The translations under genes were made by a program, and so were the position numbers. The notes beneath the pieces are model-generated. The model did no database searches and was not told where the DNA came from. It worked only from the letters and a program-made list of their open reading frames with translations. DNA of 64,000 nt from Elusimicrobiota bacterium (GTDB taxonomy: Bacteria > Elusimicrobiota > Elusimicrobia > UBA1565 > UBA9628): NCBI GenBank assembly GCA_023249645.1, contig JAHFCF010000014.1:8734-72733 (forward strand), in the 5' to 3' direction. Shown in pieces: positions 9,072 through 37,793 of this stretch. Within the stretch, counting starts at the first letter, position 1, and each line of letters starts with the position of its first letter.

Positions 9072-9077
9072 CGGAGT

Positions 9078-19305: not shown

Positions 19306-21128
19306 AGCGCTCCTCGAAGTTCCCGTCTCCAGACAGCCAGCCAGATCAGCCAGGCGGCAAAAGCCGCCGAGATTCCCCAGGCCCAGCAGACCGGCTGGAA
19401 ATCCAAGACCAGGCTCTCCAGTACCCCTGGACTTCGTTGCGGCAGACGCACGGCCTGGAAGTATCCCCAGGGCTCCAGCGCGACCTGGACGCCCCCCAGC
19501 CACGCGCGCCAGCCGGGATAGGATGGCACGCTGACCACCAGGCGGTCCGCATCCCACGGAGCGATCCCTTCCACGCGCCAACGCTCGGGCCGCGGAAGTC
19601 CGATGGAAACCCCGCTCTTCAAGGGCCGCTGCAAGCCCCGCGCGAAATAGGCCAGGGGCTGCGCTCCGGCATTGGGTACAAGCTCCCCGGAGGCGCTCAG
19701 CCGATAGGCCACGCCGGCGCTGAGCATCTCGGCGCTGTCCGCCCGGCGCGCGTAGGTCCGGCTGCCATCCGCCGCCGGCCGGCCTTCGCTGGAAGAGACA
19801 AAAGCCGGATAGCCGGCCAGATAAAAAGCGTCATAGCCATTGACGTTCATGGCCCGATACAGCATGGCCTTGTCGGGATTGGCCAGGTCCGGATCCGTCA
19901 ATATCCGCAGCGGCTTGCCGCCGACGACGCGCGCGAGCTGCGGGTTAAAAGCGAGATAGGACGAGGCGCTCTGCGGGGCCACCGCGCGGCGCCCCCAAGC
20001 CAAGAGTTCGACGCACACAGCCATCAAGACAAAAGCTTTGAGAACCGGTCGGAGCCTGGGAGTCCAACACCTAGCAGCGCTGCCCGCCGCCAGGATCAAT
20101 CCCCATAATGATAAAAACAGCCACCGCGCCGGCACTCGCAAGAAATCCATGACCATCGGATGCCTCGAGCCGCAGGCCAAGACCAGCCCCAGGACGAATA
20201 AGCCGCCGGCTCGCCAAGCCCCGGCCGCCAACAGCCCGGCCGCTGCAGCCAAAAGTCCGGTCCAACCGATGAACAGGCCGCAACTCTCAAAAAAAACAGA
20301 CGGAAAGTCTCGGAACGTCCCGTCCCAGGGATTTCCCAAGACATTGGGCGAAAAAACCGTCAGAAGAGATTGCCCTCCGGCTCTGTAGGCCTCCGCAAAA
20401 GCCTGCGGCCAATCCCGGCGCACGGACAAACCCAAGAATTGCCAGGTCATAGGCCACTGCATGGAGGCCAAAGCCGCAGCGCCCAGGCCCTCGCCGACGA
20501 ACCGCGCCAGCAGCCGACGACGCTCGCGCTGCGACAAGGCCCAGACGAACATTCCCGCGCCATTGATGCACAAGAATTGCGGATGCCCTGAAAGGAACTG
20601 CAGGGCCCAGGACGCAGCCAGAAGCCCGCGCCATGGGGAGAGGAAAGCCAGCCAGCACCAAGGCGCCCAGGAGAGGGCGGCCAGCAGCGTGGGGATTCCC
20701 GCAGCGATCCGGTAAAGAAGAAAAGGCGAGAAGGCGTAGAGACACATGGTAAAGGCGGCGGCGCTGGATCTCAAGCCTTCGCGCCGCGCCAGAAGCAGCA
20801 TGCCCAGGATCCCCCAGAGCCAATGAAAGGCCATGTCCCAGGTCAGGGCCAAGGTCAAAGGCAGGACTGCGGACAACGCTGAGACGGGATAGAAAAGAGC
20901 TGTTTGGGGATTGGCCGCGATGGGCAGGCCGCAGAAGATGTAGGGATTCCAAAACGGCAGACGCCCCGCCTCCAGAGAGCTGACCGCCAGATGCCTCAGG
21001 GGATAATGATAAGCATAGAGGTCGCCGAAGTTGGCCAGCGTCCAGCCGGGAAGGAGCACGGCCGGAAACATCAGTGCCAAGACCAGCGCTGTGAAAAAGG
21101 CGAAAAAAATAAAATCCCTGGACCTCAT
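19302..21128 (-). CDS. YfhO-like GT-C membrane glycosyltransferase
   Basis: The N-terminus has GDLYAYHYPLRHLAVSSLEAGRLPFWNPYIFCGLPIAANPQTALFYP, the characteristic YfhO opening. It is polytopic with a periplasmic C-terminal domain. Confidence 0.55.
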   Translation of the reverse strand: MRSRDFIFFAFFTALVLALMFPAVLLPGWTLANFGDLYAYHYPLRHLAVSSLEAGRLPFWNPYIFCGLPIAANPQTALFYPVSALSAVLPLTLALTWDMAFHWLWGILGMLLLARREGLRSSAAAFTMCLYAFSPFLLYRIAAGIPTLLAALSWAPWCWLAFLSPWRGLLAASWALQFLSGHPQFLCINGAGMFVWALSQRERRRLLARFVGEGLGAAALASMQWPMTWQFLGLSVRRDWPQAFAEAYRAGGQSLLTVFSPNVLGNPWDGTFRDFPSVFFESCGLFIGWTGLLAAAAGLLAAGAWRAGGLFVLGLVLACGSRHPMVMDFLRVPARWLFLSLWGLILAAGSAARCWTPRLRPVLKAFVLMAVCVELLAWGRRAVAPQSASSYLAFNPQLARVVGGKPLRILTDPDLANPDKAMLYRAMNVNGYDAFYLAGYPAFVSSSEGRPAADGSRTYARRADSAEMLSAGVAYRLSASGELVPNAGAQPLAYFARGLQRPLKSGVSIGLPRPERWRVEGIAPWDADRLVVSVPSYPGWRAWLGGVQVALEPWGYFQAVRLPQRSPGVLESLVLDFQPVCWAWGISAAFAAWLIWLAVWRRELRGAL

Positions 21129-23062
21129 GGCCGGAGGGCCCGATTATACCAATATACTCCCAAGCCCATCAGGGACATGAGGGTCAGCAGCAGTCCCGCG
21201 CGCCAGGAATCGGGGTCATAGAAAAAACGCAGCCGCCAAGGCCCGGCCGGCACGCGGACTTTCTCAAAGGCCCCCCAGGCAGGAAGGACATCGACAGGCC
21301 GAGACCTCCCCCCGGTTTCCAGGAACGCCTTCCAGCCAGGGAATCGGGGTTCGGCGATGAAGACCCAGCCCTCGGATCGGCCGGAGATCTCGTAGCGGTC
21401 CTCGCGGGACCATGTCAAAGCCAGCGGCTGCGCGCCAGAGGGCAACGGCTGCGTCGGCAGTCCCGCGGGCAGATCCTCCCCGCCTTCTGCATCCAGAGAC
21501 CAAGCCAGAGAAGCCGGTCCTTGCAGGCGATAGACATCCCAAAGGGTCCTGCCCTCCCCATGCGCCAGCTTCGGCGGGATATCCACGGGATCGCGCGTCA
21601 GCAAAAACCGCACCCCGGCTCCTGGCAAAAAGAGCGCGGCCCGCTGTGCCGAGGGCTGGCGATAAAGGAAATCCATGAACTCATAGGTCGGACGAGGAAC
21701 CAGGGGCTCGCCGAAATTCGCGGCCGCTCGCAGGTGGAAGGGCTCGTTGCTCAGGCCATAGAGCCGACCCTTCCAGTCGGAAACGCCGAACCCGGAGCCG
21801 TTTTCCAGGGCCAGAGGAGACACCAGGTAGCGCAACCCCGAAGAGTCCGCCTGCAGGCGGCGCACCAGAGGACCGGCCTGCGTGAAGATCGCGCGTTCGG
21901 CCAGGGGCACAGCGCCCCAGGCATAGAAGAGAAGCTCCCCAGCCAGGGCGGCCAACGCCCAGCAGCGCCAGGCAGTCCGGAACCGTGAAAATCCTGCGGC
22001 CACGAGAATGGCTGCCACAGGCCAACCCAAATAAGAGAGATTGCCTGGGTAACGGACCAAGCGCGCCAAGCCGGCATGCGCCCAGAGAGCGCGGGAGATC
22101 GTCGAGGAATCTCCCAGGATCAGGAGGAAGACCATGCCCAGAAGCAGCGCCAGGCCCGCGGCCCGTCGCCGATCGAGCGTGCACAGCCCCCAGGCCGCGG
22201 CTAAGGCGCCGATGCAGCCGATATGGTTGGATCGATACCAGTCCACGGCCGGGTTGAAACGCTCGCTTCCGAACAGAAGCGGGCTCACCCAGCGCGCTAG
22301 ATCGCGCCAGCCGTTGCTGAAACGCAAGGCCTCCTCCAGCCCCACGCCGACGCTGCGCCGCGAGAGGGCCAGAAGCTCGACGCCCAGGATCAGCTGACAG
22401 GCGGCCAGCGCCATCGCCCCGAGACCGGCGAGCAGCCATCCTCCCACGCCGCCCCCTTCCCCTCGGGATAAGAGGATGCTCAGGGCCCACACCAGGGCCG
22501 CGCCGCCGATCAGAAAAGGAGGATAGCCGGCCAGGAAAACGGCGGCGAGAGCCAACGACAGGAGCGCCGGCTGGTGAAAGAACAGCAGGAGCATCGGCAA
22601 CAGACTCAGCACCGACAGATGATTCAGAAAGGACATGCGGCTCAATAGGCCCCCGCCCAGCGCATAGACGGCCGCTCCTGCCAGAGCCGCCGACGGCTTC
22701 AGCCGCAGGGATCTCAGCCAGAGGAACATCAAACAACCGGCCAGCCAATAATGGAAGCCCTGAAAAATGGCCGCGGCCGTTGAGAAGCCGAAGCAATAAA
22801 ACGGGATCTCCCCGGGATAAAAAACAGCCCTCTGCATGTTGGCCGCCATCGGCATCCCGAAATAGAGTTCCGGGGTCCACAGGGGAAGCCGTCCGGATTG
22901 CAGCCGCTGCGCCGTGGAGGCAAGCCAGGGATGATGCAGATAGGTCAGGTCGCCCCAGAAGGGCGTCAGTCCCCGCAGCCAGATCGGACCAAAGAGCACA
23001 AAAACAAGAAAGACAAAAACTCCGGCGCCCGCGGCTTCCGCAGGGACCCTCTCTTGATTCAT
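21125..23062 (-). CDS. YfhO-like GT-C membrane glycosyltransferase (paralogue of the neighbouring gene)
   Basis: It has GDLTYLHHPWLASTAQRLQSGRLPLWTPELYFGMPMAANMQRAVFYP and the same architecture as 19302-21128. Confidence 0.55.
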   Translation of the reverse strand: MNQERVPAEAAGAGVFVFLVFVLFGPIWLRGLTPFWGDLTYLHHPWLASTAQRLQSGRLPLWTPELYFGMPMAANMQRAVFYPGEIPFYCFGFSTAAAIFQGFHYWLAGCLMFLWLRSLRLKPSAALAGAAVYALGGGLLSRMSFLNHLSVLSLLPMLLLFFHQPALLSLALAAVFLAGYPPFLIGGAALVWALSILLSRGEGGGVGGWLLAGLGAMALAACQLILGVELLALSRRSVGVGLEEALRFSNGWRDLARWVSPLLFGSERFNPAVDWYRSNHIGCIGALAAAWGLCTLDRRRAAGLALLLGMVFLLILGDSSTISRALWAHAGLARLVRYPGNLSYLGWPVAAILVAAGFSRFRTAWRCWALAALAGELLFYAWGAVPLAERAIFTQAGPLVRRLQADSSGLRYLVSPLALENGSGFGVSDWKGRLYGLSNEPFHLRAAANFGEPLVPRPTYEFMDFLYRQPSAQRAALFLPGAGVRFLLTRDPVDIPPKLAHGEGRTLWDVYRLQGPASLAWSLDAEGGEDLPAGLPTQPLPSGAQPLALTWSREDRYEISGRSEGWVFIAEPRFPGWKAFLETGGRSRPVDVLPAWGAFEKVRVPAGPWRLRFFYDPDSWRAGLLLTLMSLMGLGVYWYNRALRP

Positions 23063-24519
23063 GATCCCTTGAACCCCGGAGAAGTCGCGGCCGCCCGACG
23101 GCGGGCGTCCTGCGCCAGATCGTCGCGGCCGAGCTCCTGATACGCGTTCTCAAGAAGAAGCCAGGTCGATGCTCGATAGGGATTGCCGGCCACGGCGTGT
23201 TCAAAATCCGCCGCCGCTGACCACAGTCTAGACCCTCCCCCGCCCCGATGGGCTTGGATAAGCTCGATCTCTCCGGAGAGTCTTGCCGTCTCGGGATGAT
23301 CGCAGAGTTGAGAGGACCTCTCTAAAACCGCCTGGGCCGCCGTCAGGGGCTGGGACGCCAGCACCATCTCCGCCGCTCGGATGCGCAGCCTTTCCGCCTG
23401 CCACGGACTGAAGACCTTCCATCCCGCCCAACCGCAGAGTCCCACGGCCAATGCCAGAGCCGGCAGCTTCCAACGCACAGGCACGCAGACCACGCGTTGC
23501 TGGGAGACCAGTGAAGACCCCAGTCCATAGCAGAACAGCCAGAAGATCGCCGGGAAGGAAAGACTGCAATCCCAGAGGGATTGCACCAGGACGGCGATGA
23601 GGCCGACGTGTTTGAGGCCTCTGTCTTGGCGCCGCAATAAAAATACGATTCCTCCCAGCCAAACCGCGAGAAAAGGAATGCCTTGTTCAGCCGCTGTTTC
23701 CAAATAATACTGGTGCGCGTACAGGCTGCCTAACGGCCGGGATGGGTTGATGTAGGCTGCGGAAACATAGGCAAAGGTCCCCGGGCCGAAGCCCGAGCAC
23801 GGATGCGCCCACGCCATGCGAGCCGCCGACTGCCACCAGAGCCAGCGGCTCCAGACATCGTGGCTCCCCCACTTGAGGACGATGATCGCCAAAGCCGCGG
23901 CTCCGGCTCCCGCAGTGAGCGCCCGCCAGGCCCAACCCGGGCGCCGAAGGAGCAGCAGGCTCGCGGCCAGGCCCAGCCAAGCGCCGGCGCTCCTGGTCCA
24001 TGCCAGACAGAGGATCAAAAGACCGCACAGAAGCCAATCGCCTCCCGAGGCGGCCAAGGCCAGAAAGAGGAGCAGGGCGCCGGCAAAGGCGTTCTCATTG
24101 ACCAGGCTGGAGGCAGGCTGAGGATGGCCGAAAGCCTGATGCTGATAAACCGCCAACAAGGCCGTCAGCCAAGCGGCAGCGCGGATGGCACGCTCAAACT
24201 GTCCGCGCTGCTCCGACGGCATCATGGACGCGGCCAGGATCGTCCCTAGTCCCGCCATCCCTGCGAACCAAGAAGGCCAGGCATAGGCCGGCAGGGGACT
24301 GACGCCAGCCGCCGCAGCGCTCAAGAGGGCCAAGCCGACGGTCCAAGACAGGAGACCGCCTGCCGGCAGGGGGACGGAACCTCCGGCGATGCGTCGGCAC
24401 AGCCAGAGCAGCGCTGCGGCCAGAGCCGCCAGCTCTAGGAGGGAACGCGCCCACAGCTCCCAAGCCCCCTGGAGTAGAGGTCCCAGGACCACCAGCGGCG
24501 CCAGCAGGATGGCCAGCAC
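23059..24519 (-). CDS. Wzy_C-domain protein (O-antigen ligase / O-oligosaccharyltransferase family) with a short TPR-like tail
   Basis: It has WTRSAGAWLGLAASLLL and GFGPGTF...YAHQYYLETAAEQGIPFL (the Wzy_C loop with a conserved His). The C-terminal part has NPYRASTWLLLENAYQELG. Confidence 0.65.
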   Translation of the reverse strand: MLAILLAPLVVLGPLLQGAWELWARSLLELAALAAALLWLCRRIAGGSVPLPAGGLLSWTVGLALLSAAAAGVSPLPAYAWPSWFAGMAGLGTILAASMMPSEQRGQFERAIRAAAWLTALLAVYQHQAFGHPQPASSLVNENAFAGALLLFLALAASGGDWLLCGLLILCLAWTRSAGAWLGLAASLLLLRRPGWAWRALTAGAGAAALAIIVLKWGSHDVWSRWLWWQSAARMAWAHPCSGFGPGTFAYVSAAYINPSRPLGSLYAHQYYLETAAEQGIPFLAVWLGGIVFLLRRQDRGLKHVGLIAVLVQSLWDCSLSFPAIFWLFCYGLGSSLVSQQRVVCVPVRWKLPALALAVGLCGWAGWKVFSPWQAERLRIRAAEMVLASQPLTAAQAVLERSSQLCDHPETARLSGEIELIQAHRGGGGSRLWSAAADFEHAVAGNPYRASTWLLLENAYQELGRDDLAQDARRRAAATSPGFKGS

Positions 24520-27956: not shown

Positions 27957-29099
27957 TCAGTCTCCGTAGCGCCGCAGGGCCAGGCCCGCGGCCACGGCAA
28001 AAGCAGGAGCCATGGCCGCCGGCAGGTCCGCCGGGGGACGCTGAAGGAATGCGAACGGATCGACGATGGACACGGGGACCTTGAGCTCCACGCTCAGGTG
28101 TTCGGCCAGATGAGGCAGTTTCGCCGTCCCGCCGGAAAGCAGGACCTGTCCGATGGTCCTCTCCGAGCCTTGCGAAAGGTAAAAATCCACCGAGCGCCGC
28201 AGCTCGGCGACCAGGTCCTTGATCACGGCGGCCAGCGCCTGGGACACGCCCAAGATCTCATGGCTGCCCGCCTTTAAGGCCTGCTCCGTCTGCGCGGCAT
28301 CCAGGACCAGACCATGGGCTCGTTTGAGCTCCTCGGCCTTGGCCGCGTCGACCTGCAGGGCCTTCATGACCGCCTTGGTCAGCGTCCCCCCGGAAATGAA
28401 GATGTCGCGCACAACGCGCGTCACGCCGTTCTCCATGACGGAAAAATTCGTCACGGAATGGCCGATATTGAGACAGAGGATCGCTCCCCCCGGGGTCGCG
28501 GGCCCTCTCCTCTTCTCATAGACATTCTCAAGGGCGAAGGAATCCACATCGATGATGGCCGGGTTCAGACCCGCGTTCTGCAGGATCTCCAAGCGCGCCG
28601 AAACCAGCTCTTTTTTGGCCGCCACCAGGACCAGTTCCGTCTTTTTCTGCCCCTCTTCCATCGCCTCGCCGAGCACATGGAATCCGAGCTGGACCTCGTT
28701 GATGTCGAAGGGGATGAAAGGCTCGGCCTCGGTGGCCAGGACCGCGGCGATCTCGCTGGGGGCCAGACGCGGAAACTTCACATAGCGCACGATGACGGAA
28801 TTCCCGGACAGAGAGGTCGCCGACTCCTTGAGTCCGATGCCGTTCTCTGCGATGAAGGCCCGCAAGACATCCGTCGCCCGAGCCTTGCGCTCCTCCGCGC
28901 TGGCCTCTGGCCCCAGACCCAAGGGCAGATAGCCCCACGCCTTGAGCATCGGAATTCCCTTCTCGGCGGCCATGAGGACGACCTTGACCGCATAGCTGCC
29001 GATGTCCACGCCCAGGACATGGCGCGGCCTCGCGAGGGCGCTGGTCAGCCCCTTCAACCCCTGGAGTCGTTCTTTGATTTTATCAAGCATCTGAGCCAT
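27957..29099 (-). CDS. pilM: Type IV pilus assembly protein PilM (actin-like ATPase fold)
   Basis: It has VLGVDIGSYAVKVV, LNIGHSVTNF and LLSGGTAKLPHL. I chose the ATG at 29099 because the track start 29195 is the TTG of the predicted -35 box. Confidence 0.85.
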   Translation of the reverse strand: MAQMLDKIKERLQGLKGLTSALARPRHVLGVDIGSYAVKVVLMAAEKGIPMLKAWGYLPLGLGPEASAEERKARATDVLRAFIAENGIGLKESATSLSGNSVIVRYVKFPRLAPSEIAAVLATEAEPFIPFDINEVQLGFHVLGEAMEEGQKKTELVLVAAKKELVSARLEILQNAGLNPAIIDVDSFALENVYEKRRGPATPGGAILCLNIGHSVTNFSVMENGVTRVVRDIFISGGTLTKAVMKALQVDAAKAEELKRAHGLVLDAAQTEQALKAGSHEILGVSQALAAVIKDLVAELRRSVDFYLSQGSERTIGQVLLSGGTAKLPHLAEHLSVELKVPVSIVDPFAFLQRPPADLPAAMAPAFAVAAGLALRRYGD

Positions 29100-29166
29100 A
29101 AAAAAAAGCCGCCGCTCCCGCCACGGACAAGACCCATGGACCGGAGCACTCGGCGCAAGACACCCA

Positions 29167-29195
29167 GTTATAACAGGAATCCATTCTCTTGTCAA
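29167..29195 (-). promoter_or_regulatory. Candidate sigma70-type promoter of the pilM operon
   Basis: On the minus strand there is a -35 TTGACA (29195..29190), an exact 17-nt spacer and a -10 TATAAC (29172..29167), about 68 nt upstream of the pilM ATG. Confidence 0.5.
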
Positions 29196-29311
29196 GACCT
29201 TTAGTCATTGTCATTATAAAGAATCAATATCAAAAATAAATCAACGCCCGAACAGGAGGCTTTGGAGGCGCTTTTGTGGCAGCATTCTACAATATAGTAC
29301 AATGACAAAAC

Positions 29312-30673
29312 ATGGACGCGATCCTCTTTGATTTCGGCGGGACTTTGGATTCGGACGCCCTCCCTTGGATCGACCGCTTTGATCGTCTTTATGCGCAGGC
29401 CGGCCTGGCTCCGGACCGCACCCGGTTCGACCGGGCCTTTTACGATTCGGATGACAATCTGCCCGCACGGTTCCGCCTGCAGGGCCTCTCCCTGCAAGAA
29501 ACCCTGACCCTCCAGGTACGCTGTGTCTTGAATTCTCTGGCTCCCCAGCGCGTCGAGCAAACCGGTCCGATCGTGCAGGCATTCCTCGCTGAAAGCCGCG
29601 CCTCTTTCCGGCGCGTTCGCCCGGTCTTGGAGAGGCTCTCGCGCCGCTATCGCCTGGGCGTTGTGTCCAATTTCTATGGCAACCTTGACAGCGTCCTGGC
29701 CTCGGAGGGACTGCGCGACCTCTTTGCCGTCGTGATCGATTCCGGGGTCGTGGGCGCGACCAAGCCCGACCCCGCCATCTTCCAGGCCGCCCTCCAAGCC
29801 CTCGGGACCTCCCCGAAGAACACCCTCATGGTCGGGGACTCCCTGGCAAGGGACATGCGCGGAGCCGAAGCCTTGGGCATGCCTCACCTCTGGATCGCAG
29901 ACCTCTCCAAGCCTGCCTGCTGCCATCAGGCCCTGCGGGCAGCGTCCGTGGCGGACCTGGAAAAAGCGCTTGCGCCCCTGCGGGTCGGCATCATCGCCGC
30001 CGGAGAAGGCTCGCGGCTTCAATCCAGCCATCCCGAGACCATCAAGCCCCTGATCCCGATCCATGGCCGCCCTCTGTGCCACTGGATCGTCGATTCTCTC
30101 CGGGGAGCCGGGGCAACGGATTTCACCATCCTCTTCAATGCCAAAGGGCGTCAAGCGCCGGACAGCCTGCGAACGGCATTCCCCGATCTCCGATTTTCCT
30201 TCCTGGAGCGAGACACCGCCTCCTCTTGGGAAAGCTTCCGTTTGGTCGCCTCGACCCTGGCGCAAACCGAGGGGGACTTCCTCATCAGCACGGTCGACGC
30301 CCTGGTTCCTCCCTCTGCAATCCGACGCTTCGTTCAAGAAGCGCGCCGCAGCGGCGCGTCCGCCGCGCTGGCGATCACTTCCTTCATCGATGATGAGAAG
30401 CCCCTGTGGGCCGACGTGAGCCATGGCCGCGTCACCGCCTTGGGGGCGCAGGCGCGCCAGAAGACCCACGCGACCTGCGGCCTCTACTATATGACCGCTG
30501 AAGCGGTCCAGACATTCCCTTCCGCTGAGAAGTACGGCTCGCTGCGAGAATACCTATCCTCACTTGTCTGCGCAGGCCAGACCGCCGGCATCGTCCTGGC
30601 CAAGACCTTGGACGTGGACCGGCCCGAGGACGTGCGCCAGGCCGAGGCCTTTGTCACCGCGCTGAGGAGCTAG
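29312..30673 (+). CDS. Fusion protein: N-terminal HAD-IA hydrolase + C-terminal sugar/alcohol-phosphate nucleotidyltransferase
   Basis: The HAD half has LFDFGGTL (motif I), VVSNF (motif II), K at GATKPD, and VGDSLARD (motif IV). The nucleotidyltransferase half (from about residue 225) has GIIAAGEGSRL....KPLIPIHGRPL, the GxGxRL signature. Confidence 0.7.
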   Translation: MDAILFDFGGTLDSDALPWIDRFDRLYAQAGLAPDRTRFDRAFYDSDDNLPARFRLQGLSLQETLTLQVRCVLNSLAPQRVEQTGPIVQAFLAESRASFRRVRPVLERLSRRYRLGVVSNFYGNLDSVLASEGLRDLFAVVIDSGVVGATKPDPAIFQAALQALGTSPKNTLMVGDSLARDMRGAEALGMPHLWIADLSKPACCHQALRAASVADLEKALAPLRVGIIAAGEGSRLQSSHPETIKPLIPIHGRPLCHWIVDSLRGAGATDFTILFNAKGRQAPDSLRTAFPDLRFSFLERDTASSWESFRLVASTLAQTEGDFLISTVDALVPPSAIRRFVQEARRSGASAALAITSFIDDEKPLWADVSHGRVTALGAQARQKTHATCGLYYMTAEAVQTFPSAEKYGSLREYLSSLVCAGQTAGIVLAKTLDVDRPEDVRQAEAFVTALRS

Positions 30674-30678
30674 CCCGC

Positions 30679-31527
30679 ATGGTCTCCTGCCTGGGCATCT
30701 TCCGAGAATTGACGAACTCCCCGAACCGGGAAAGCGACGACGCCCTCATCCTCAAGGCGGTCATGGACCAGCTCGGGATCTATAAGACCCACACGCAGAC
30801 CATGACCCCGGAAGAGGCGGACACCGCGGATTTGAGCTCCTGGGACATGATCGTGCCCATGTGCGAATCCTACCCGCGCTTGCGTCGACTGGCCGCGCTG
30901 AGACGGTCCCAGAACGTCGTGATGGTCAACCCTCCCGAGTCGGTCCTGGCGTGCTACCGCCTGGCCATGATCGAGGCTTTCTCTCATGACCCCAGCATCC
31001 TCATCCCTCACACGGAGACGCGCACGATCCAGGGCTCGGCCCAGATGCGCCCGCCGGCCTTCGACATCGCCAACGGCCTCTGGGTCAAGAGGGGAGACGT
31101 GCACAACACCTGCTCCCACGACGTGGTCTACGCTCAGGACTGGTCCGAGGTGGAGGCCATCCGCCAGGACTTCGCGGGCCGCGAGATATCCTCCTTGGTC
31201 CTGCAGCAGCACGTCGACGGGGACCTGGTCAAGTTCTACGGCGTGGGGCCCGGCCGCTGGTTCACCTACTTCTACCACGATCCAGCCACGGCGCGGAAGA
31301 TCCCCTTCGACATCGACATCCTCGCGGCCATGGCCGCAGCCGGGGCCTCTGCCTTGAAGCTCGAGGTCTTCGGCGGAGACGCCATCATCACGCCCTCGGG
31401 GCGTCTGTGCCTCATCGACATCAACTCCTGGCCGAGCTTCGCCCGCGTGCGCGCGGAAGCGGCCATCCAGATCGCCTGGCAGCTGCGCACGAGACTCAAA
31501 ACCCTGCAAGCCGTGAGGAAACCCTGA
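30679..31527 (+). CDS. ATP-grasp fold protein, ITPK1 (inositol-phosphate kinase)-like by motif
   Basis: WVKRGDVHNTCSHDVV, LVLQQHVDGDLVKFYGVG and VFGGDAIITPSGRLCLIDINSWPSF mirror, as I remember them, the ITPK1 segments CKTRVAHGTNSHEMA, VVQNFINHNAVLYKVFVVG and LFGIDIIIN....VIDINAFPGY. A generic ATP-grasp ligase cannot be excluded. Confidence 0.45.
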   Translation: MVSCLGIFRELTNSPNRESDDALILKAVMDQLGIYKTHTQTMTPEEADTADLSSWDMIVPMCESYPRLRRLAALRRSQNVVMVNPPESVLACYRLAMIEAFSHDPSILIPHTETRTIQGSAQMRPPAFDIANGLWVKRGDVHNTCSHDVVYAQDWSEVEAIRQDFAGREISSLVLQQHVDGDLVKFYGVGPGRWFTYFYHDPATARKIPFDIDILAAMAAAGASALKLEVFGGDAIITPSGRLCLIDINSWPSFARVRAEAAIQIAWQLRTRLKTLQAVRKP

Positions 31528-31529
31528 CC

Positions 31530-32885
31530 ATGCCACCATCCACGAACGCTCCCTCCAAGACCTTCCGTTACGCCCCGGGACCGAAGTCCAAGGCCCTCTT
31601 CGACGAGGAGCAAAAGAACATCGCTCCCGGCCTGCAGACCATCGCCCTCTACTCCCAGATCGCTCTCGAAAGCGGCCACGGCCGATATCTGCGCGACCTC
31701 GACGGCAAGGAGTATCTCGACTTCGTCGCCGGCATCGGCGTGGCTTCTTTGGGCTACTCCCACCCGGACTTCGTGCGCATCGTCTCCGAGCAATTGGCCA
31801 AGGTGTCCGTGGGCAGCTTCACCACGCCCCACCGGGCCTCCTTCGTCAAGACCCTGTCCACGATCACGCCCAAGGGTCTCGACCGCATCCAACTCTATTC
31901 CTCCGGGGCCGAGGCCGTGGAAGCGGCCGTGCGGCTGGCCAAGAGCCGGACCAAGAAATACGAGCTCGTCGGCTTCTGGGGGGGCTTCCATGGCAAGACG
32001 GGCGGCATCCTTCCGGTCTTGGGCGACAGCTTCAAGCACGACTTGGGGCCTCTCATGCCCGGTCTGTATCTGGCGCCCTATCCGAACCAGGACCATTGTC
32101 CCTTCGGAACGCAGGGTGAGCACGACTGCGCGGCCCACTGTCTGAGTTTCCTGCGCGAACTCTTGAAGCGCTCGACGGCCGGAGCTCTGGCCGCCATCAT
32201 CGCGGAGCCCATCCAAGGCACGGCCGGCAACGTCATCCCGGCCAAGGGCTTCCTCAAGGGCCTGCGAGCCCTCACTCAGGAGATGGGCGCCCTTCTCATT
32301 TCGGATGAGATGATCACGGGCTTCGGCCGCACCGGCCAATGGTGGGGCTGCGACCACGAAGGCATCACCCCGGACATCCTGACCGTGGGCAAGGGCCTGG
32401 GAGGGGGTTTCCCGGTCTCGGGCGTCATCACCTCGACGGAGATCGCCCAGTCCAAGCCCTGGGGCAACCCCAGCGGCTCCTCTTCGAGCTACGGCGGAAA
32501 TCCCCTGGCCTCGGCGGCCTGCGACGCGGCCCTTCAGATCCTCATCAAGGAAAAACTAGTGGAGAATTCCCGCCGGGTCGGGGCCAAGCTGCTCAAAAGC
32601 CTCCAGGAACTCAAGCTCCGATCCCCCCTCATCGGCCTGGTGCGCGGCCGGGGTCTCATGATCGGCGTGGAGCTGGTCAACCCCAAGACGAACAAGCCCC
32701 TCGAATCCCCGCTCTGCCGGGAGCTCTTCGAGGAATGCCTCACCCGCGGCCTGTTGACCATGTCCTACAATGCCGCTCTGCGCATCAACCCGCCCTTGAG
32801 CATCACCGAAGAAGAAGCGATGGCGGGCGTTGAGATCTTCACAGCGGCGCTCACGGCCGTGGCCTCCAGGCACGACCTCCGCTGA
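31530..32885 (+). CDS. Class-III (omega) PLP aminotransferase
   Basis: It has SSGAEAVEAAVRLAK, AEPIQGTAGNV, LISDEMITGFGRTGQWW and TVGKGLGGGFPVSG (the Schiff-base Lys). Confidence 0.8.
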   Translation: MPPSTNAPSKTFRYAPGPKSKALFDEEQKNIAPGLQTIALYSQIALESGHGRYLRDLDGKEYLDFVAGIGVASLGYSHPDFVRIVSEQLAKVSVGSFTTPHRASFVKTLSTITPKGLDRIQLYSSGAEAVEAAVRLAKSRTKKYELVGFWGGFHGKTGGILPVLGDSFKHDLGPLMPGLYLAPYPNQDHCPFGTQGEHDCAAHCLSFLRELLKRSTAGALAAIIAEPIQGTAGNVIPAKGFLKGLRALTQEMGALLISDEMITGFGRTGQWWGCDHEGITPDILTVGKGLGGGFPVSGVITSTEIAQSKPWGNPSGSSSSYGGNPLASAACDAALQILIKEKLVENSRRVGAKLLKSLQELKLRSPLIGLVRGRGLMIGVELVNPKTNKPLESPLCRELFEECLTRGLLTMSYNAALRINPPLSITEEEAMAGVEIFTAALTAVASRHDLR

Positions 32886-33910
32886 TGAGACTGCGCGGGG
32901 CCCTCATCGGATTCGGACAGGTGGCGCAGAACGCGCATGTCCCGGCTTTTCACAGCTCCGAAGACGTTGAGATCGTCGCCGTGGCCGACACCGCGCCCGC
33001 CCTGCGGGCTCAAGCGGCCCAAGCCTTCCCCGGAGCCAAGACCTATGCCTCGTTGAAGGACCTGCTGGCCGGCGAGAAGCGCTTGGATTTCGTGGACCTG
33101 GCCACGCCTCCATGGCTGCATGGCGCCCAAGCGTTGGAAGCTTTGGAACAGGACCTTCATGTCCTTTGCGAGAAGCCCCTGACCCTGGATGTCTCGCAAC
33201 TGCGACAGCTGGCGCAAAGCGCCGCACGCCGAGAGAAAACAGTCTTTACCGTTCATAACTGGGCGTATGCCCCCATCTGGGCCAAGGCCCAAGAGCTCCT
33301 CGCGCAAGGAGCCATCGGCGAGCCGCGCCACGCGGAGCTGCACGTCCTGAGGACCAAGCCGGCGCCCGGCCAGCAGGGAGACTGGCGCATGGACCGCCGC
33401 CTGGCCGGGGGAGGGATCCTGGTCGACCACGGCTGGCACAATCTCTATCTCCTGCGCCGCTGCCTCTTTCCCGCGGGCGCCGCGCAGTCGCCGCTCTTGA
33501 CCAGCGCGGTCCTCCACCGCCCCATGCCGACCGGCGCGGAGGATGAAGCCACTGTTTTTTTCCAGTTTTCGCAAGCGACCGCCCTGGTGCGACTCTCCTG
33601 GCGGGCCTCTTCCCGGTCCAATACGGCTCTCATCCAGGGCTCGACAGGGACCCTGGAACTGCGCGACGATCGCATTCTTTTGAGCTCTGTCGGAAAGCCG
33701 GAACAGACATTCTCCTTCCCCCAGAAGCTCTCCGCCGGCTCGGCTCATCCGGAGTGGTTCTCCGCCATGCTCCCGGATTTCCTCGCCGAGATCCGCGATC
33801 ACCGGCAGCGCGGCCGCAACCTCGCCGAAGCCGGCTTCGTCTTGGACCTCATCACGCGGGCTTATGCTGTTCCAACTCCGGCGCAGCCCCTGGAACAGAT
33901 GGCGGCTTGA
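32885..33910 (+). CDS. Gfo/Idh/MocA family NAD(P)-dependent oxidoreductase
   Basis: It has the Rossmann opening GALIGFGQVAQNAHVPAF and the CEKPL motif. Its ATG shares one base with the upstream TGA. Confidence 0.8.
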   Translation: MRLRGALIGFGQVAQNAHVPAFHSSEDVEIVAVADTAPALRAQAAQAFPGAKTYASLKDLLAGEKRLDFVDLATPPWLHGAQALEALEQDLHVLCEKPLTLDVSQLRQLAQSAARREKTVFTVHNWAYAPIWAKAQELLAQGAIGEPRHAELHVLRTKPAPGQQGDWRMDRRLAGGGILVDHGWHNLYLLRRCLFPAGAAQSPLLTSAVLHRPMPTGAEDEATVFFQFSQATALVRLSWRASSRSNTALIQGSTGTLELRDDRILLSSVGKPEQTFSFPQKLSAGSAHPEWFSAMLPDFLAEIRDHRQRGRNLAEAGFVLDLITRAYAVPTPAQPLEQMAA

Positions 33911-33911
33911 G

Positions 33912-35072
33912 ATGATCGAGAACGCCATCCTGTGGGTCCCCCCGGCTGAGTTTTTACAAAAACCGCGCCGCCTGGGAGGTCTCTCCATCCTGGAGCGCCA
34001 GCTTCACACTTTGAGCCGCGCCGGTCTGCGCCGGGTCTGGATCTCCACGCAAACTCAAGGAAGAACTCCTCAACCACTGCGTCTGCCTCCCGGGCTTGAG
34101 ATCGTTTGGACCGATCACGCGGCAGAAAAACCCGCCACCCCTTATCTGATCGTCTCGGGCGGCCATTTTCTGAGGACCGAGACCCTCTCCCGCATCGCCC
34201 GATTGCCGCTGGCCGGTCCCATCGCCTTTGTGGACGCCGGCCAGAGTTCCGTCATCCAGGCCATCACCGCGCCGTGCGAAGAGGCATCTGCCTGCCGCAA
34301 ACAAGATCTCCCCGAAGACTCCTCATGGGCCATCGCGGGGCCCACCGAAGATGCGGCGGCCCTGGATTGGCTCATGGAGGTCGGCATCAAAAGCCAGGAC
34401 GGCTTCATGGCGCGCCATTTCGACCGGCACATCTCCCTGGCCGTCTCCCGGACGCTCTTGGACACGCCCGTCTCGCCCAACATGATGACTCTGTTCAGCT
34501 GCGCCGTGGGCCTTCTCGGCACGTTCTTCTTCCTGATCCATCGGGAAAAAGCCCATCTGATCGGCGCGGCGCTGGTGTGGCTGCATTCGGTGCTGGACGG
34601 CTGCGACGGAGAGCTGGCTCGCATCCGGTTCCAGGAAAGCCCCTGGGGAGCGCAGATCGATTTCTGGGGGGACAATGTCGTGCACCTCTCCCTGTTCGCC
34701 TGTCTGGCCGTGGGCTTCGCGCGGGCCGACGCCAGCATCGTGCCGCTCGTGGGAGGAGCGATCGCCATGGTAGGCGTCGTCGGCTCAGCCATCCTGGTCC
34801 ACAACCGCAGACAAACATCCCCCACCCAGGCCGCGGCCGCATCTCCCCAGGGACATCCTCCCTGGACGCGCCTGGTGGTGCTCCTGGAACAGCGTGATTT
34901 CATCTACCTGCTCCTGTTCCTCGCCTACTTAAGCTGGTATTATCATTCCCTCCGGTTCACCTACGCCTTCATGTGGGCCGGCGTCGTAGGCACGTTTTTG
35001 TTCTTCACCATGATCAATTACATCGGGAGGTCCAACAGTGAACAAGAATTCCAACCGGATCGCGCCGGCTAA
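33912..35072 (+). CDS. CDP-alcohol phosphotransferase with an N-terminal cytoplasmic nucleotidyltransferase-like (degenerate) domain; DIPPS/AF2299-like architecture
   Basis: It matches D-G-x2-A-R-x8-G-x3-D-x3-D perfectly: DGCDGELAR-IRFQESPW-G-AQI-D-FWG-D. About 6 TM segments follow. The N-terminal 150 aa (ILWVPPAEF..LGGLSILERQLHTL) lack the GxGxR loop. Confidence 0.75.
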   Translation: MIENAILWVPPAEFLQKPRRLGGLSILERQLHTLSRAGLRRVWISTQTQGRTPQPLRLPPGLEIVWTDHAAEKPATPYLIVSGGHFLRTETLSRIARLPLAGPIAFVDAGQSSVIQAITAPCEEASACRKQDLPEDSSWAIAGPTEDAAALDWLMEVGIKSQDGFMARHFDRHISLAVSRTLLDTPVSPNMMTLFSCAVGLLGTFFFLIHREKAHLIGAALVWLHSVLDGCDGELARIRFQESPWGAQIDFWGDNVVHLSLFACLAVGFARADASIVPLVGGAIAMVGVVGSAILVHNRRQTSPTQAAAASPQGHPPWTRLVVLLEQRDFIYLLLFLAYLSWYYHSLRFTYAFMWAGVVGTFLFFTMINYIGRSNSEQEFQPDRAG

Positions 35073-36417
35073 GGGCACGCTGGGAGTCCTGCTGCCCGGC
35101 ATGGGCGCGGTCACGAGCACCTTCATCGCCGGCGTCGCCCTGGCCAAGAAGAACCAGGGACGTCTCATCGGATCGCTGACCCAGATGCAGACCATCCGTC
35201 TGGGCAAGCGCTACGAGCATCGCGCGCCCCTCATCAAGGATTTCGTCCCTCTGACCTCCATCGAGAACCTCGTCTTCGGCGGCTGGGATCTTTTCCCGGA
35301 CAATATGTACGAGGCGGCCATGAAGGCCGGGGTCCTGGAACCCAGGCACCTCGAGCCGATCCGCCGGGAATTAGAATCCATCGTCCCCATGACCGCGGTC
35401 TGGGACAAGACGTATCTCAAGAACCTCAAGGCCACCCATTTCAAGAAGGGCGCAACCAAGCGCAATCTGGCCCAGCAGATCATGGATGACATCGTGGCGT
35501 TCAAGCATCGCTCCGGCGTCGAGCGCCTCGTGATGCTCTGGTGCGGCTCCACCGAGATCCTGCCGCAGGATTCCCCGGTCCACAAGTCCCTCGCTGCTTT
35601 TGAAAAGGGCTTGGACTCCAACCATCCGGCCATCCCGCCGTCCATGATCTACACCTACGCGGCCTTGAAGATGGGCATCCCGTACGCCAACGGCGCGCCC
35701 AACCTCTCGGCGGACACTCCGGCCATGGTGGAACTCGCGGAGAAGACCGGCACGCCCATCATGGGCAAGGACTTCAAGACCGGACAGACCCTGATGAAGA
35801 CCACGATCTCGCCCATGCTCAAGGCGCGCATGCTCGCCCTGCGGGGCTGGTACTCGACCAACATCCTGGGCAACCGCGACGGCGAGGTGCTGGACGATCC
35901 GGGCTCGTTCAAGACCAAGGAAAAGAGCAAGATGTCGGTCCTCGACAGCATCCTCGAGCCCAAGCTCTATCCTCAGCTCTACGGCAAGTACCACCACAAG
36001 GTCCGCATCGACTACTACCCGCCGCGCGGCGACGCCAAGGAAGGCTGGGACAACATCGACATCGCGGGCTGGCTCGACATGCCCATGCAGATCAAGATCA
36101 ACTTCCTCTGCCGCGACTCGATCTTGGCCGCACCCATCGTGCTCGACCTAGTCCTCTTCATGGACCTGGCCAAGCGCGCGGGATTGAAAGGCATCCAGGA
36201 ATGGCTGTCTTTTTACTTCAAGTCCCCCCAATGCCGGGCCGACCTCGGCCCCGAGCACGACATCTTCATCCAGCACTTGAAGCTCAAGAACACCCTGCGT
36301 CTCTTGATGGGCGAGGAAGTCCTGGACCACTCGGGACTCGACTATTACGACCAGGCCAAGGGACTGCCCGCGCCGGCTGCGGCGGCCAAGCCATTGGCCA
36401 AAGGCAAGTCCCGATAG
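35038..36417 (+). CDS. ino1: myo-Inositol-1(3)-phosphate synthase
   Basis: It has LLPGMGAVTSTFIAG (the NAD site), YANGAPNLS and WYSTNILGNRDGEVL. The GTG start at 35038 is preceded by GGGAGG (35025-35030) and overlaps the upstream gene by 35 nt. Confidence 0.9.
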   Translation: MNKNSNRIAPAKGTLGVLLPGMGAVTSTFIAGVALAKKNQGRLIGSLTQMQTIRLGKRYEHRAPLIKDFVPLTSIENLVFGGWDLFPDNMYEAAMKAGVLEPRHLEPIRRELESIVPMTAVWDKTYLKNLKATHFKKGATKRNLAQQIMDDIVAFKHRSGVERLVMLWCGSTEILPQDSPVHKSLAAFEKGLDSNHPAIPPSMIYTYAALKMGIPYANGAPNLSADTPAMVELAEKTGTPIMGKDFKTGQTLMKTTISPMLKARMLALRGWYSTNILGNRDGEVLDDPGSFKTKEKSKMSVLDSILEPKLYPQLYGKYHHKVRIDYYPPRGDAKEGWDNIDIAGWLDMPMQIKINFLCRDSILAAPIVLDLVLFMDLAKRAGLKGIQEWLSFYFKSPQCRADLGPEHDIFIQHLKLKNTLRLLMGEEVLDHSGLDYYDQAKGLPAPAAAAKPLAKGKSR

Positions 36418-36433
36418 CCCATAGAAGGGACCC

Positions 36434-36462
36434 TTGACAAAAACACATACCTGACTTACACT
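36434..36462 (+). promoter_or_regulatory. Candidate sigma70-type promoter of vapBC
   Basis: It has a -35 TTGACA (36434-36439), a 17-nt spacer and a -10 TACACT (36457-36462), 33 nt upstream of the vapB ATG. Confidence 0.4.
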
Positions 36463-36494
36463 ATATTAATCGATAGCTAAATAGTAAGAACCTG

Positions 36495-36704
36495 ATGACC
36501 AAGATAACCGTTTCCACCAAATACCAGGTCGTGATCCCCAAAGAGATCCGCGGCCAAGCGCGCGTGCGTAAGGGCGAGAAATTCATCGCCCTGGTCAAAG
36601 ACGGCGTCATCTCCCTTGTCGCCGAACGCCCCCTGAAGTATCTGCAGGGCTCTTTCAAGGGGATGAAAGCCACCGCCCTGCGCGACAAGCACGACCGCAC
36701 ATGA
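36495..36704 (+). CDS. vapB: AbrB/SpoVT-fold antitoxin (VapB type)
   Basis: The 69-aa protein has KITVSTKYQVVIPKEIR (the swapped-hairpin motif). A 4-nt overlap joins it to the PIN gene. Confidence 0.75.
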   Translation: MTKITVSTKYQVVIPKEIRGQARVRKGEKFIALVKDGVISLVAERPLKYLQGSFKGMKATALRDKHDRT

Positions 36705-37066
36705 TCCTGCTGGATTCTTCCGCTTGGATCGAATTTCTGACCGACGGCCCCGCGGCTCCGCGTATCGCCAAGGAAATGAGCTCCCCTTCACAGATACTCA
36801 CCCCCACTCTGGTTCTTTACGAAGTCTATAAGAAACTCAAGCGCGAACGCGGAGAAGAAGCCGCGTTAAGCGCCGTGGCCCAGCTCAACCAGACCCGCAT
36901 CGTCCCGCTGGATGATTCCCTGGCTCTAGGCGCGGCCGACATCAGCCTTGCCTTCGCTTTGCCCATGGCAGATTCCATCATCGCGGCCACGGCCAAAGTC
37001 CACGAAGCCAAGATACTCACTCTGGACAACGACTTCCGGAAGATTCCCTGGGCCGAAGTTCTCTAA
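36701..37066 (+). CDS. vapC: PIN-domain ribonuclease toxin
   Basis: It has MILLDSSAWIEF (the first acidic residue), ...E..., and MADSIIAATA...LTLDNDF (the distal Asp residues). Confidence 0.8.
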   Translation: MILLDSSAWIEFLTDGPAAPRIAKEMSSPSQILTPTLVLYEVYKKLKRERGEEAALSAVAQLNQTRIVPLDDSLALGAADISLAFALPMADSIIAATAKVHEAKILTLDNDFRKIPWAEVL

Positions 37067-37105
37067 GCATTCGATTTTGTATACTCCTCAAAGCACAAAA
37101 AATTT

Positions 37106-37429
37106 ATGGTAGAGCAAGCTCAAATAAAAACTTTCTGCGCCGCGGTGGCGCATCAATTCCATCCGCGTAAAATCATCCTTTTCGGTTCGTATGCTTATGG
37201 AAAGCCCACCAAGGATTCCGACGTAGACCTGCTGGTGATCATGGACCGGACACGGTATCACGGCGAACGGATATCCCTTCGGATAAGACAGGCCGTTCCA
37301 GCGGGATTCCCTCTTGATCTGCTTGTGCGGACGCCCAAATTCATTGCTCAGCGGATGGCTTGGGACGATTCTTTTACGCGGGAAATCATGGCCCGAGGCA
37401 AGGTGCTGTATGAAACCTCTCACGCGTGA
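37106..37429 (+). CDS. Minimal nucleotidyltransferase (MNT), partner of the HEPN protein
   Basis: It has the pol-beta-type motif LFGSYAYGKPTKDSDVDLLV. Confidence 0.75.
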   Translation: MVEQAQIKTFCAAVAHQFHPRKIILFGSYAYGKPTKDSDVDLLVIMDRTRYHGERISLRIRQAVPAGFPLDLLVRTPKFIAQRMAWDDSFTREIMARGKVLYETSHA

Positions 37430-37793
37430 ATGGCTGGAGAAGGCCGAAGGGGATTTCCTGGTCGCCAGCCAAATCATGCGGAGCAGTCGGCGCGTTCATG
37501 ACGCCGCGTGTTTCCACTGCCAACAGACGATAGAGAAGTATTTTAAAGCCCGGCTCTGCCAGGCGGGCGTGGCCTTCCCAAAAACCCACGATTTGGTTGT
37601 CTTGCTGCACCTGGTGCTGCCTGCCGAACCACTGTGGAAGTCCTATGAGCCGGCGGCCAAACGATTGACGGAATATGCAGTGAGCTTCCGCTATCCCGGT
37701 GATAAAGCCACCCAAGCCGAAGCCAAACTGGCCTTGAAATACTGCCGCTCGTTGCGGGGCGAAGTGCGACGTAGTCTGGGAATGAAAGTCTGA
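37410..37793 (+). CDS. HEPN-domain protein
   Basis: Starting from MKPLTREWLEKAEGDF it is all-helical, with HCQQTIEKYFKA and YAVSFRYPG. It overlaps the MNT gene by 20 nt. Confidence 0.7.
   Translation: MKPLTREWLEKAEGDFLVASQIMRSSRRVHDAACFHCQQTIEKYFKARLCQAGVAFPKTHDLVVLLHLVLPAEPLWKSYEPAAKRLTEYAVSFRYPGDKATQAEAKLALKYCRSLRGEVRRSLGMKV

Follow-up and report, generated by a model that had tools for sequence, protein, structure and literature searches.

What reaction is carried out by a small ATP-grasp protein that is encoded within an inositol-related operon of a groundwater bacterium? The question is raised by a window of 64,000 nucleotides (assembly GCA_023249645.1, contig JAHFCF010000014.1, positions 8,734 to 72,733) from an uncultured groundwater Elusimicrobiota genome, the sequence being present in three groundwater metagenome DNA runs and in no RNA runs. 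In this window, the open reading frame (ORF) 30679-31527 on the forward strand encodes a protein of 282 amino acids (aa); the protein and its family are both called X below. X stands for a sizeable enzyme family that still lacks a name, and its gene has been passed over in a pathway that others have already proposed for major gut bacteria. As far as sequence and gene context tell, the family belongs to the core of a gene cluster, widespread in bacteria, for CDP-activated inositol-type head groups, and X is read, with about an even chance, as a cyclitol or cyclitol-phosphate kinase feeding the cytidylyltransferase. The gene, its conservation, predicted fold, conserved ATP and Mg residues, neighbourhood and fusions are the observations; the kinase chemistry, the substrate, the order of the steps and the pathway product are what we infer.

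X is the second of six tightly packed genes on the forward strand (29312-36417). These genes and the stretch in front of them are as follows (NTase, nucleotidyltransferase; MIPS, myo-inositol-1-phosphate synthase):

29189-29303, forward strand: promoter-like sites between the divergent pilM and the operon, three sigma-70-like matches by consensus only
29312-30673, forward strand: fused HAD phosphatase (residues 1-~215) and MobA-like NTase (~221-453), assigned by Pfam
30679-31527, forward strand: ATP-grasp protein X, 282 aa, proposed cyclitol or cyclitol-phosphate kinase of an unnamed family
31530-32885, forward strand: class-III (omega) aminotransferase (Pfam Aminotran_3, 9e-102)
32885-33910, forward strand: Gfo/Idh/MocA oxidoreductase (Pfam GFO_IDH_MocA 1.9e-21, C3 domain 2.2e-20)
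33864-35072, forward strand: membrane CDP-alcohol phosphotransferase, AF2299/DIPPS-like (Pfam CDP-OH_P_transf 8.9e-13), start codon uncertain
35038-36417, forward strand: MIPS (Pfam NAD_binding_5 2.9e-94, Inos-1-P_synth 2e-33)

MIPS, the last gene, lies in the same operon as X but four genes and about 3.5 kb downstream of it, and is not the immediate neighbour that an earlier note on this DNA had taken it for.

The same enzymes accompany X in other genomes, and this context tells more about its function than any other evidence. Homologues of the six window proteins have been mapped on 84 loci, and partners encoded on the same strand within 4.5 kb have been counted for those 49 X copies that are flanked by at least 4.5 kb of sequence on either side:

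HAD near X: 44 of 49 copies
NTase near X: 42 of 49 copies
CDP-alcohol transferase near X: 40 of 49 copies
Oxidoreductase near X: 33 of 49 copies
Aminotransferase near X: 31 of 49 copies

The gene directly upstream of X is usually the NTase, and the full set (HAD, NTase, X, aminotransferase, oxidoreductase, CDP-alcohol transferase and MIPS) recurs in most phyla, usually in the order of the window. Gene fusions have been found among 150 listed representatives, ten long ones of which were scanned. Six of these ten (P0128, P0137, P0200, P0207, P0218, P0220) join an NTP_transf_3 domain to X; further arrangements are HAD, NTP_transf_3 and X in a single chain (P0122), X with CDP-OH_P_transf (P0145) and X with HAD (P0255). 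The fusion partners of X are three: the nucleotidyltransferase, HAD and the CDP-alcohol transferase.

X is read as a kinase because the adjoining and often fused NTase needs a phosphorylated substrate, namely a phosphate ester. For a small soluble ATP-grasp enzyme that keeps to the NTase in hundreds of species, making this ester would be the simplest role. Pairs of a kinase and an NTase are a standard design, represented by LicA/LicC, AmgK/MurU and HldE, and in C. jejuni the ATP-grasp-containing L-glutamine kinase Cj1418 pairs with Cj1416, a MobA-like cytidylyltransferase. The logic shared with Cj1418/Cj1416, LicA/LicC and AmgK/MurU is that the kinase makes a phosphate ester (or amidate) from which an adjacent NTP_transf_3-type enzyme forms a CDP or UDP derivative; Cj1418, LicA and AmgK act on substrates other than that of X, and the analogy is functional only. 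A kinase acting on an inositol-derived substrate, as the earlier note proposed, is still the best reading, although its grounds have shifted from ITPK1 motifs to gene context.

With MIPS and a DIPPS/PIPS/AF2299-like transferase, the partners of X are inositol enzymes throughout. The chemistry in which X takes part is assigned to the activation and transfer of an inositol head group because the CDP-alcohol transferase is AF2299/DIPPS/PIPS-like and the NTase weakly matches 4y7t and 4jd0. The former enzyme is recognized by the DIPPS half of NF041135 (2.5e-21, NCBIfam) and, among PDB entries, by AF2299 (2.4e-22), A. fulgidus IPCT/DIPPS (3.2e-11) and PIP synthases (2e-7 to 7e-4). The HAD-NTase fusion (Pfam Hydrolase 1.9e-20, HAD_2 4e-16, NTP_transf_3 2.1e-11) has a weak match to the IPCT half of NF041135 (3.5e-7, NCBIfam). 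The window NTase is nearest in the PDB to 4y7t and 4jd0, both weak matches bearing only the title "Nucleotidyl transferase"; we take 4y7t to be MurU and 4jd0 to be T. maritima IPCT. The oxidoreductase resembles inositol 2-dehydrogenase or sugar 3-dehydrogenase (NCBIfam iolG 1.2e-17 and UDP-GlcNAc 3-dehydrogenase 7e-18, both under cut-off). The CDP-alcohol phosphotransferase also carries a cytosolic N-terminal domain of about 165 aa (33864-34360) with a faint NTP_transf_3 match (E 0.12), which may be a degenerate cytidylyltransferase domain in a layout resembling A. fulgidus AF2299.

Clusters without the aminotransferase and the oxidoreductase occur in Thermoanaerobaculia (HAD, NTase, X, CDP-alcohol transferase, MIPS), as a second acidobacterial cluster (HAD, X, CDP-alcohol transferase, with no NTase of its own) and in Bacteroidales (NTase, X, CDP-alcohol transferase, LPG_synthase_TM, HAD, with MIPS nearby in most). 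Since X occurs in such clusters, its substrate need not be an amine. Phosphorylation of an inosamine, which the earlier note had offered as one option, is compatible with the evidence but, for the same reason, not the whole story. In the minimal cluster no carboxylate-bearing substrate is evident, and a carboxylate-amine ligase would require an amine.

Seven acidobacterial loci (L024, L036, L041, L045, L060, L061, L065) hold two X paralogues about 7-9 kb apart. The cluster of the first is composed of NTase, X1, aminotransferase, oxidoreductase, CDP-OH transferase and MIPS, and that of the second of HAD, X2 and a second CDP-OH transferase. In X2 the divergent loop reads W-x-K-Q-A-T-E-H-K-T versus W-x-K-R-G-D-V-H-A-T, and F-Y-P takes the place of F-Y-H. 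The arrangement suggests two head groups sharing one NTase and one HAD. At eight loci (L005, L011, L012, L014, L026, L029, L032, L066) the long form of MIPS is replaced by a shorter ORF, mostly of about 1.1-1.2 kb, which matches the window MIPS weakly (E 1e-6 to 1e-12) and may represent either a second type of MIPS or some other NAD-dependent cyclase.

For Bacteroides vulgatus and Prevotella, Heaver et al. 2022 (PMC9246714) have put forward an "alternative" inositol-lipid pathway as a hypothesis, with genes for an NTP transferase (BVU_RS13095), a CDP-alcohol phosphatidyltransferase (BVU_RS13105), a HAD hydrolase (BVU_RS13115) and MIPS. The NTP transferase is proposed there to take inositol phosphate directly, and an ATP-grasp protein is nowhere mentioned (PMC9246714). 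At the Phocaeicola and Bacteroides loci, X separates the NTP transferase from the phosphatidyltransferase, and the latter is in turn separated from HAD by an MprF-flippase-like protein. Judged by gene order and spacing, X would be the gene skipped between BVU_RS13095 and BVU_RS13105. All four domains of this CDP-inositol, Kennedy-like cluster are present in the window operon (29312-36417), and the same set surrounds X in many phyla, Bacteroidales included. The window operon differs from the cluster of Heaver et al. in having a dehydrogenase and a class-III aminotransferase as well, and in the fusion of its HAD with the NTase. A literature search for an ATP-grasp enzyme, inositol kinase or inosamine lipid in bacterial inositol-lipid clusters gave nothing beyond Heaver et al. 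2022. In Phocaeicola L078, the cluster is flanked by a PdxA-family dehydrogenase upstream (8179-9276) and an MFS transporter downstream (13525-14745).

The IPCT/DIPPS and AF2299 systems are a second point of comparison. They share with the window operon a similar CDP-alcohol transferase, an NTase with a weak IPCT match and MIPS in the operon, and, as in the IPCT/DIPPS pathway, the phosphatase of the window operon could remove a leftover phosphate. The differences relate to gene content, since known clusters for di-myo-inositol-phosphate (DIP) need no ATP-grasp enzyme, dehydrogenase or aminotransferase, and to habitat: DIP producers are hyperthermophiles, whereas the hosts of X are mesophilic groundwater, soil and gut bacteria.

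In the proposed mechanism, X would phosphorylate a ring hydroxyl of the cyclitol with ATP, the NTase would turn the resulting phospho-cyclitol into CDP-cyclitol, and the membrane phosphotransferase would move the head group to a lipid alcohol. Two step orders use every gene once. In route A, MIPS would make Ins-3-P and HAD would free myo-inositol; the dehydrogenase and the aminotransferase, where present, would convert this to an inosamine; X would then re-phosphorylate the cyclitol, possibly at the D-1 position of normal inositol lipids, before the NTase and the phosphotransferase act. In route D, X would add a second phosphate to Ins-3-P, the bisphosphate would be CMP-activated and transferred, and HAD would finally strip the leftover phosphate, as in the PIP, PGP and DIPP pathways. 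The phosphate introduced by MIPS ends at D-3, and inositol lipids are linked via D-1. From the presence of the dehydrogenase and aminotransferase pair, the window operon is predicted to yield a phospholipid with an aminocyclitol (inosamine) or some related head group. A membrane-lipid fate is suggested by the MprF-flippase-like gene of Bacteroidales and by a gene set on the opposite strand upstream of the window operon.

X is widespread and strongly conserved at its predicted active site. Homologues number 2162 at 90% clustering, the closest coming from Elusimicrobiota metagenome-assembled genomes; an exhaustive profile search of 50%-identity representatives gives 1009 at E<=1e-3 and 281 at E<=1e-30, and a pattern scan of one genome per species finds a relative encoded in at least 595 species. 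The family spans Methylomirabilota/Rokubacteria, Acidobacteriota, Thermoanaerobaculia, deltaproteobacterial lineages, Verrucomicrobiota, Ignavibacteria, Bacteroidales (Bacteroides, Phocaeicola, Muribaculaceae), Sphingobacterium and Elusimicrobiota. Its members are labelled "hypothetical protein" (NCBI, Bacteroidales and Sphingobacterium) or "glutathione synthase/RimK-type ligase-like" (JGI). In an alignment of 115 diverse members with 26-53% identity to the window protein, thirteen residues are invariant in all 115 (R9, D21, R94, K137, G181, K185, Y187, G232, G233, D234, D247, N249 and P252). As this set includes the expected ATP-binding lysines (K137, K185) and the Mg triad (D234, D247, N249), the enzyme is very probably active.

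In X proteins from Bacteroidales and Sphingobacterium, the F-Y-P motif is followed, about 200 residues in, by some 13 inserted residues (consensus x-H-S-K-F-G-L-E-x-I-N-G). This insertion is carried by L057, L058, L062, L070, L073, L077-L079 and L082-L084 and by none of the other loci in that alignment; a similar insertion, H-S-K-[FY]-G-L-E-x-x-N-G, is found in a few other representatives of the family.

The AlphaFold2 model of X (pLDDT 90.1, pTM 0.86) is compact, soluble and three-domain. Foldseek of the model against the PDB gave 703 matches (E<=1e-3); each of the 50 listed is an ATP-grasp enzyme, with a probability of 1.0 and a TM-score of 0.6-0.74. The ATP-grasp fold named in the earlier note is thereby borne out: the predicted three-domain alpha/beta fold, the conserved pair of lysines and the acidic/acidic/Asn triad are all features of this superfamily. 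Structural neighbours at probability 1.0 include ArgX/LysX, PPIP5K2, ITPK1 and RimK. The best TM-scores among the matches listed are those of LysX/ArgX (0.71-0.74), and maize ITPK1 structures reach 0.63-0.66 by query length and 0.66-0.69 by target length. Foldseek does not part kinases from ligases, as ArgX/LysX, PPIP5K2, ITPK1, RimK, DcsG and Ddl fall within about two orders of magnitude.

The assignment of X to the ITPK1 family had been based on three segments, WVKRGDVHNTCSHDVV (residues 135-150), LVLQQHVDGDLVKFYGVG (173-190) and VFGGDAIITPSGRLCLIDINSWPSF (230-254), all of which are found in the ORF 30679-31527. Their pairing with ITPK1, proposed in the earlier note, is reproduced exactly by a profile-profile alignment in hhalign between the 115-member X alignment and a profile of thirteen retrieved vertebrate ITPK1 proteins (probability 90%, E 1.4e-6, 233 columns). 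The paired residues of X and ITPK1 are K137-K157, H142-H162, T144-T164, S146-S166, H147-H167, Q176-Q188, K185-K199, D234-D281, D247-D295 and N249-N297. The ITPK-type Mg ligands D...D-x-N and the equivalent of K199 are represented in X by the invariant D234, D247-x-N249 and K185. In a search of the PDB with the X family profile (HMMER), AtITPK4 scores 1.9e-7 and human and Entamoeba ITPK1 about 2.5e-4, with alignments to ITPK structures that cover the C-terminal Mg-binding part only. X thus resembles ITPK1/ITPK4 in the ATP-grasp fold, the paired lysines (K137/K157, K185/K199), the Mg ligands, a His-containing loop that is not glycine-rich, and the inositol context.

Membership in the ITPK1 family is nevertheless not sustained. 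The PF05770 profile, proposed in the earlier note as a check, reaches 11.5 bits (E 0.22), short of its gathering cut-off of 23; among 41 close members of X it matches 13, with a best E of 0.02, and the highest that it scores on a fusion protein is 17.6 bits. PF17927, the N-terminal ITPK domain that all retrieved ITPK1 proteins carry, was found neither in the window X at E<=1 nor in the 41 close members at E<=10. Human ITPK1 H167, of the S-H motif, is the histidine that binds the substrate phosphate. Although the window X has S146-H147, the equivalent of this histidine is unconserved across the 115 members: position 147 is mostly E, G or D, with H outside the five commonest residues, position 146 is mostly P, K, A or R, and position 144 is T in only 29. 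T144, S146 and H147 are a peculiarity of the Elusimicrobiota subgroup. The ITPK1 insert 205-227 is missing from X in the hhalign alignment, and X has an invariant N-terminal motif of its own, G-[IV]-x-R-E-x2-[FY]-S-P...D, unlike ITPK. RimK, moreover, scores at least as well as ITPK1. The resemblance of the motifs is for the most part generic ATP-grasp chemistry and does not separate ITPK1 from RimK-type ligases.

The comparison with these ligases gives a mixed result. Single-sequence and narrow-profile searches yielded in Pfam only PF05770 (E 0.22), in NCBIfam rimK_fam (E 0.037) and in the PDB, as best entry, ITPK4 (E 0.23 or 0.016). With the X family profile the best PDB match is PsnB (4.8e-8), followed by AtITPK4, P. 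aeruginosa RimK (7e-6) and human ITPK1, with PsnB and RimK being aligned over almost all of the ATP-grasp region. Single-sequence controls in hhalign rank E. coli RimK at a probability of 95% (score 59), ITPK1 at 79.5% (44), GshB at 77% (42, over 44 columns) and DdlB at 10% (28); the HMMER bits for the same controls are 22.9, 22.6, 14.5 and 2.5, respectively. The RimK family model TIGR00768 gives 13.4 bits on X against a cut-off of 143.4, and PF08443 matches 15 of the 41 close members weakly (best E 0.002). The sub-threshold Pfam matches among these 41 are YheCD in 22, RimK in 15, Ins134_P3_kin in 13 and TTL in 4. The best profile and structure matches are therefore ligases (PsnB, RimK, ArgX/LysX), as the earlier note would have expected if its assignment failed, but ITPK scores are significant as well. 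From these similarities X founds a separate ATP-grasp family, about equally far from RimK-type ligases and ITPKs.

Local features differ from the overall similarity. The second Mg ligand of X is D-x-N, like that of ITPK1/ITPK4, whereas RimK and PsnB have E-x-N; in the hhalign alignment I-D-I-N of X faces M-E-V-N of RimK. The family loop past K137, K-R-G-D-x-H-[AST]-x4-D-V, is aligned with K-T-R-V-A-H-G-T-N-S-H-E-M of ITPK1, and in the window protein K-R-G-D-V-H-N-T-C-S-H-D-V faces K-L-V-E-G-T-Q-G-I-G-V of E. coli RimK. The glycine-rich G-T-Q-G-I-G-V loop of RimK is absent from X. The D-x-N ligand and the loop after K137 are two local features that lean to inositol kinases. X shares with RimK, LysX and ArgX the best overall profile and fold similarity, a length of 280-300 aa and the three-domain layout; it differs from them in lacking the G-[ST]-x-G-x-G loop, in a gene context without carrier protein or peptide substrate, and in occurring also in clusters without any amine-forming enzyme.

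The most serious competitor of the cyclitol kinase, although an unlikely one, is a RimK/LysX/PsnB-type ligase, which would convert a carboxylate to an acyl phosphate and couple it to an inosamine amine or an inositol hydroxyl, for example by aminoacylation of a head group whose product is then flipped by an MprF-like flippase protein. Apart from the near full-length RimK match, the PsnB profile and the top Foldseek rank of ArgX/LysX, it is favoured by the JGI label of family members, by the next gene of the window, an aminotransferase that would make an amine, and by LPG_synthase_TM (MprF flippase-type), which is part of the cluster in Bacteroidales and close to the operon in Elusimicrobiota. 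Against this stand the equal presence of X in clusters without the aminotransferase and dehydrogenase, the missing glycine-rich loop together with D-x-N instead of E-x-N and the low TIGR00768 score, and the lack of any gene in the minimal cluster that supplies or suggests a carboxylate substrate; the closest and most often fused partner is the NTase, which the product of a ligase would not feed. There is only a slight chance for a different placement of a kinase: X could act late, on the lipid-bound head group, to give a PIP-like lipid, with HAD as its antagonist or as the next step. The intact ATP/Mg site, the fusions to the CDP-alcohol transferase (P0145) and HAD (P0255), and the second acidobacterial cluster (HAD, X and CDP-OH transferase without its own NTase) agree with such a role. 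But no membrane-binding segment is seen in the predicted compact, soluble three-domain enzyme, its dominant neighbour and fusion partner is a soluble NTase, and several of the acidobacterial clusters without NTase have an NTase-bearing cluster within about 10 kb.

The original idea, a true ITPK-type kinase building soluble InsP2-InsP6 from the MIPS product, is very improbable. It can draw on the AtITPK4 and human and Entamoeba ITPK1 matches, on the hhalign alignment with its paired catalytic residues, and on the known phosphorylation of Ins-3-P by ITPK1 (PMC6900528). It is opposed by the sub-threshold PF05770, the lack of PF17927, the unconserved H167 equivalent and the missing insert, and by the few invariant basic residues besides the ATP ligands (R9, R94), unlike a polyphosphate pocket. 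The conserved partners are all enzymes of head-group activation and transfer, with no further InsP kinases or phosphatases at the mapped loci; they indicate one phosphorylation feeding a cytidylyltransferase, not polyphosphate synthesis. The soluble higher inositol phosphates anticipated in the earlier note are not supported: nothing hints at an InsPn pathway, and the partners all speak for a head group activated with CDP. Whatever probability remains beyond these four readings belongs to something not considered.

Several points also weigh against the cyclitol kinase itself. The overall similarity of X slightly favours ligases over ITPKs, to judge from the hhalign result for RimK, the PsnB profile match and the TM-scores of LysX/ArgX. 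A kinase would not be chemically required, by analogy with known DIP pathways, which run without one, as in DIP producers the cytidylyltransferase uses the MIPS product directly. CDP-inositol made straight from the MIPS product would carry the "wrong" linkage, a possible reason for a kinase, but this rationale is itself one that we infer. The fusions join nearly all partners, so the step order stays unfixed by them. Finally, 63 X members from aminotransferase clusters have been compared with 25 from clusters without this gene, and no residue present in at least 85% of one set and rare in the other discriminates cleanly between them. Trends at positions 141, 145, 146 and 200, such as F-Y-H versus F-Y-P in Bacteroidales and the second acidobacterial paralogue, have exceptions on both sides and may reflect phylogeny.

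The ATG of X begins 6 nt past the stop of the upstream gene and is preceded by a GAGGAG Shine-Dalgarno sequence 9 nt 5' of it; its stop TGA (31525-31527) is followed after 2 nt by the ATG of the next gene. In the scanned region 28900-37000 five sigma-70-like matches were found versus 1.3 expected, and terminator-like matches showed no excess over shuffled sequence. The HAD-NTase fusion occurs likewise in the contigs of close relatives (453 and 460 aa), while in more distant Elusimicrobiota (L001, L003) HAD and NTase are two overlapping genes. A frameshift artefact has been rejected as its explanation, as two independent related contigs hold the same 453-/460-aa fusion. The true start of the aminotransferase is ATG 31530, with GAGGA upstream, and relatives are called at 444-451 aa; the mechanical GTG start at 31407 (31407-31529, forward strand) was dismissed as an ORF extension due to high G+C. 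Also dismissed was a 289-aa ORF on the reverse strand (30670-31539) that spans all of X, a mechanical ORF typical of DNA with 64% G+C.

On the reverse strand upstream (16188-24519) there are genes for a GT4 glycosyltransferase (16188-17306), a methyltransferase with a Trm112p-like N-terminus (17303-18310), an LPG_synthase_TM (MprF flippase-type) protein (18307-19581), two large proteins without Pfam match (19302-21128 and 21125-23062) and a Wzy_C protein (23059-24519). In a relative with 91% identity, the genes for the glycosyltransferase, LPG_synthase_TM and Wzy_C abut the inositol operon on one contig, with no pil genes between. The GT4, methyltransferase, LPG_synthase_TM and Wzy_C set may serve later steps (glycosylation, methylation, flipping) of the same lipid. 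Downstream, between MIPS and bamA, toxin-antitoxin-type genes occupy 36477-37793, where the G+C falls to 0.556: a PIN-domain protein (36701-37066) and a nucleotidyltransferase (37106-37429) that overlaps a HEPN protein (37314-37793). They look like a local insertion, because related Elusimicrobiota loci have at most one small gene between MIPS and bamA.

If the kinase reading is true, the proposed alternative inositol-lipid pathway of abundant gut Bacteroidales (Phocaeicola vulgatus and, according to PMC9246714, many Prevotella) lacks a step as drawn. A large family named "hypothetical" in hundreds of species would gain a function, and its relation to the eukaryotic ITPK/PPIP5K enzymes would become testable. 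A wider proposal can be put forward only tentatively, as it is less likely to be right than wrong: X would constitute a new bacterial class of cyclitol kinases with an ATP-grasp fold and supply the obligatory step now missing from a head-group pathway of the Kennedy type, leading to inositol lipids in Bacteroidales and, by way of the dehydrogenase and aminotransferase, to a phosphatidyl-inosamine type lipid in Elusimicrobiota, Methylomirabilota, Acidobacteriota, Verrucomicrobiota and others. We know of no description of such a class of aminocyclitol phospholipids. In that case ATP-grasp inositol kinases would not be confined to eukaryotes and archaea. Should X instead be a ligase, it would direct attention to an acylation of the head group, so far sought by nobody. 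If X is a kinase, the seven-gene cluster leads one to expect a new head group of aminocyclitol type in several little-studied phyla, with a bearing on membrane charge, environmental lipid biomarkers and host-microbe lipid signalling.

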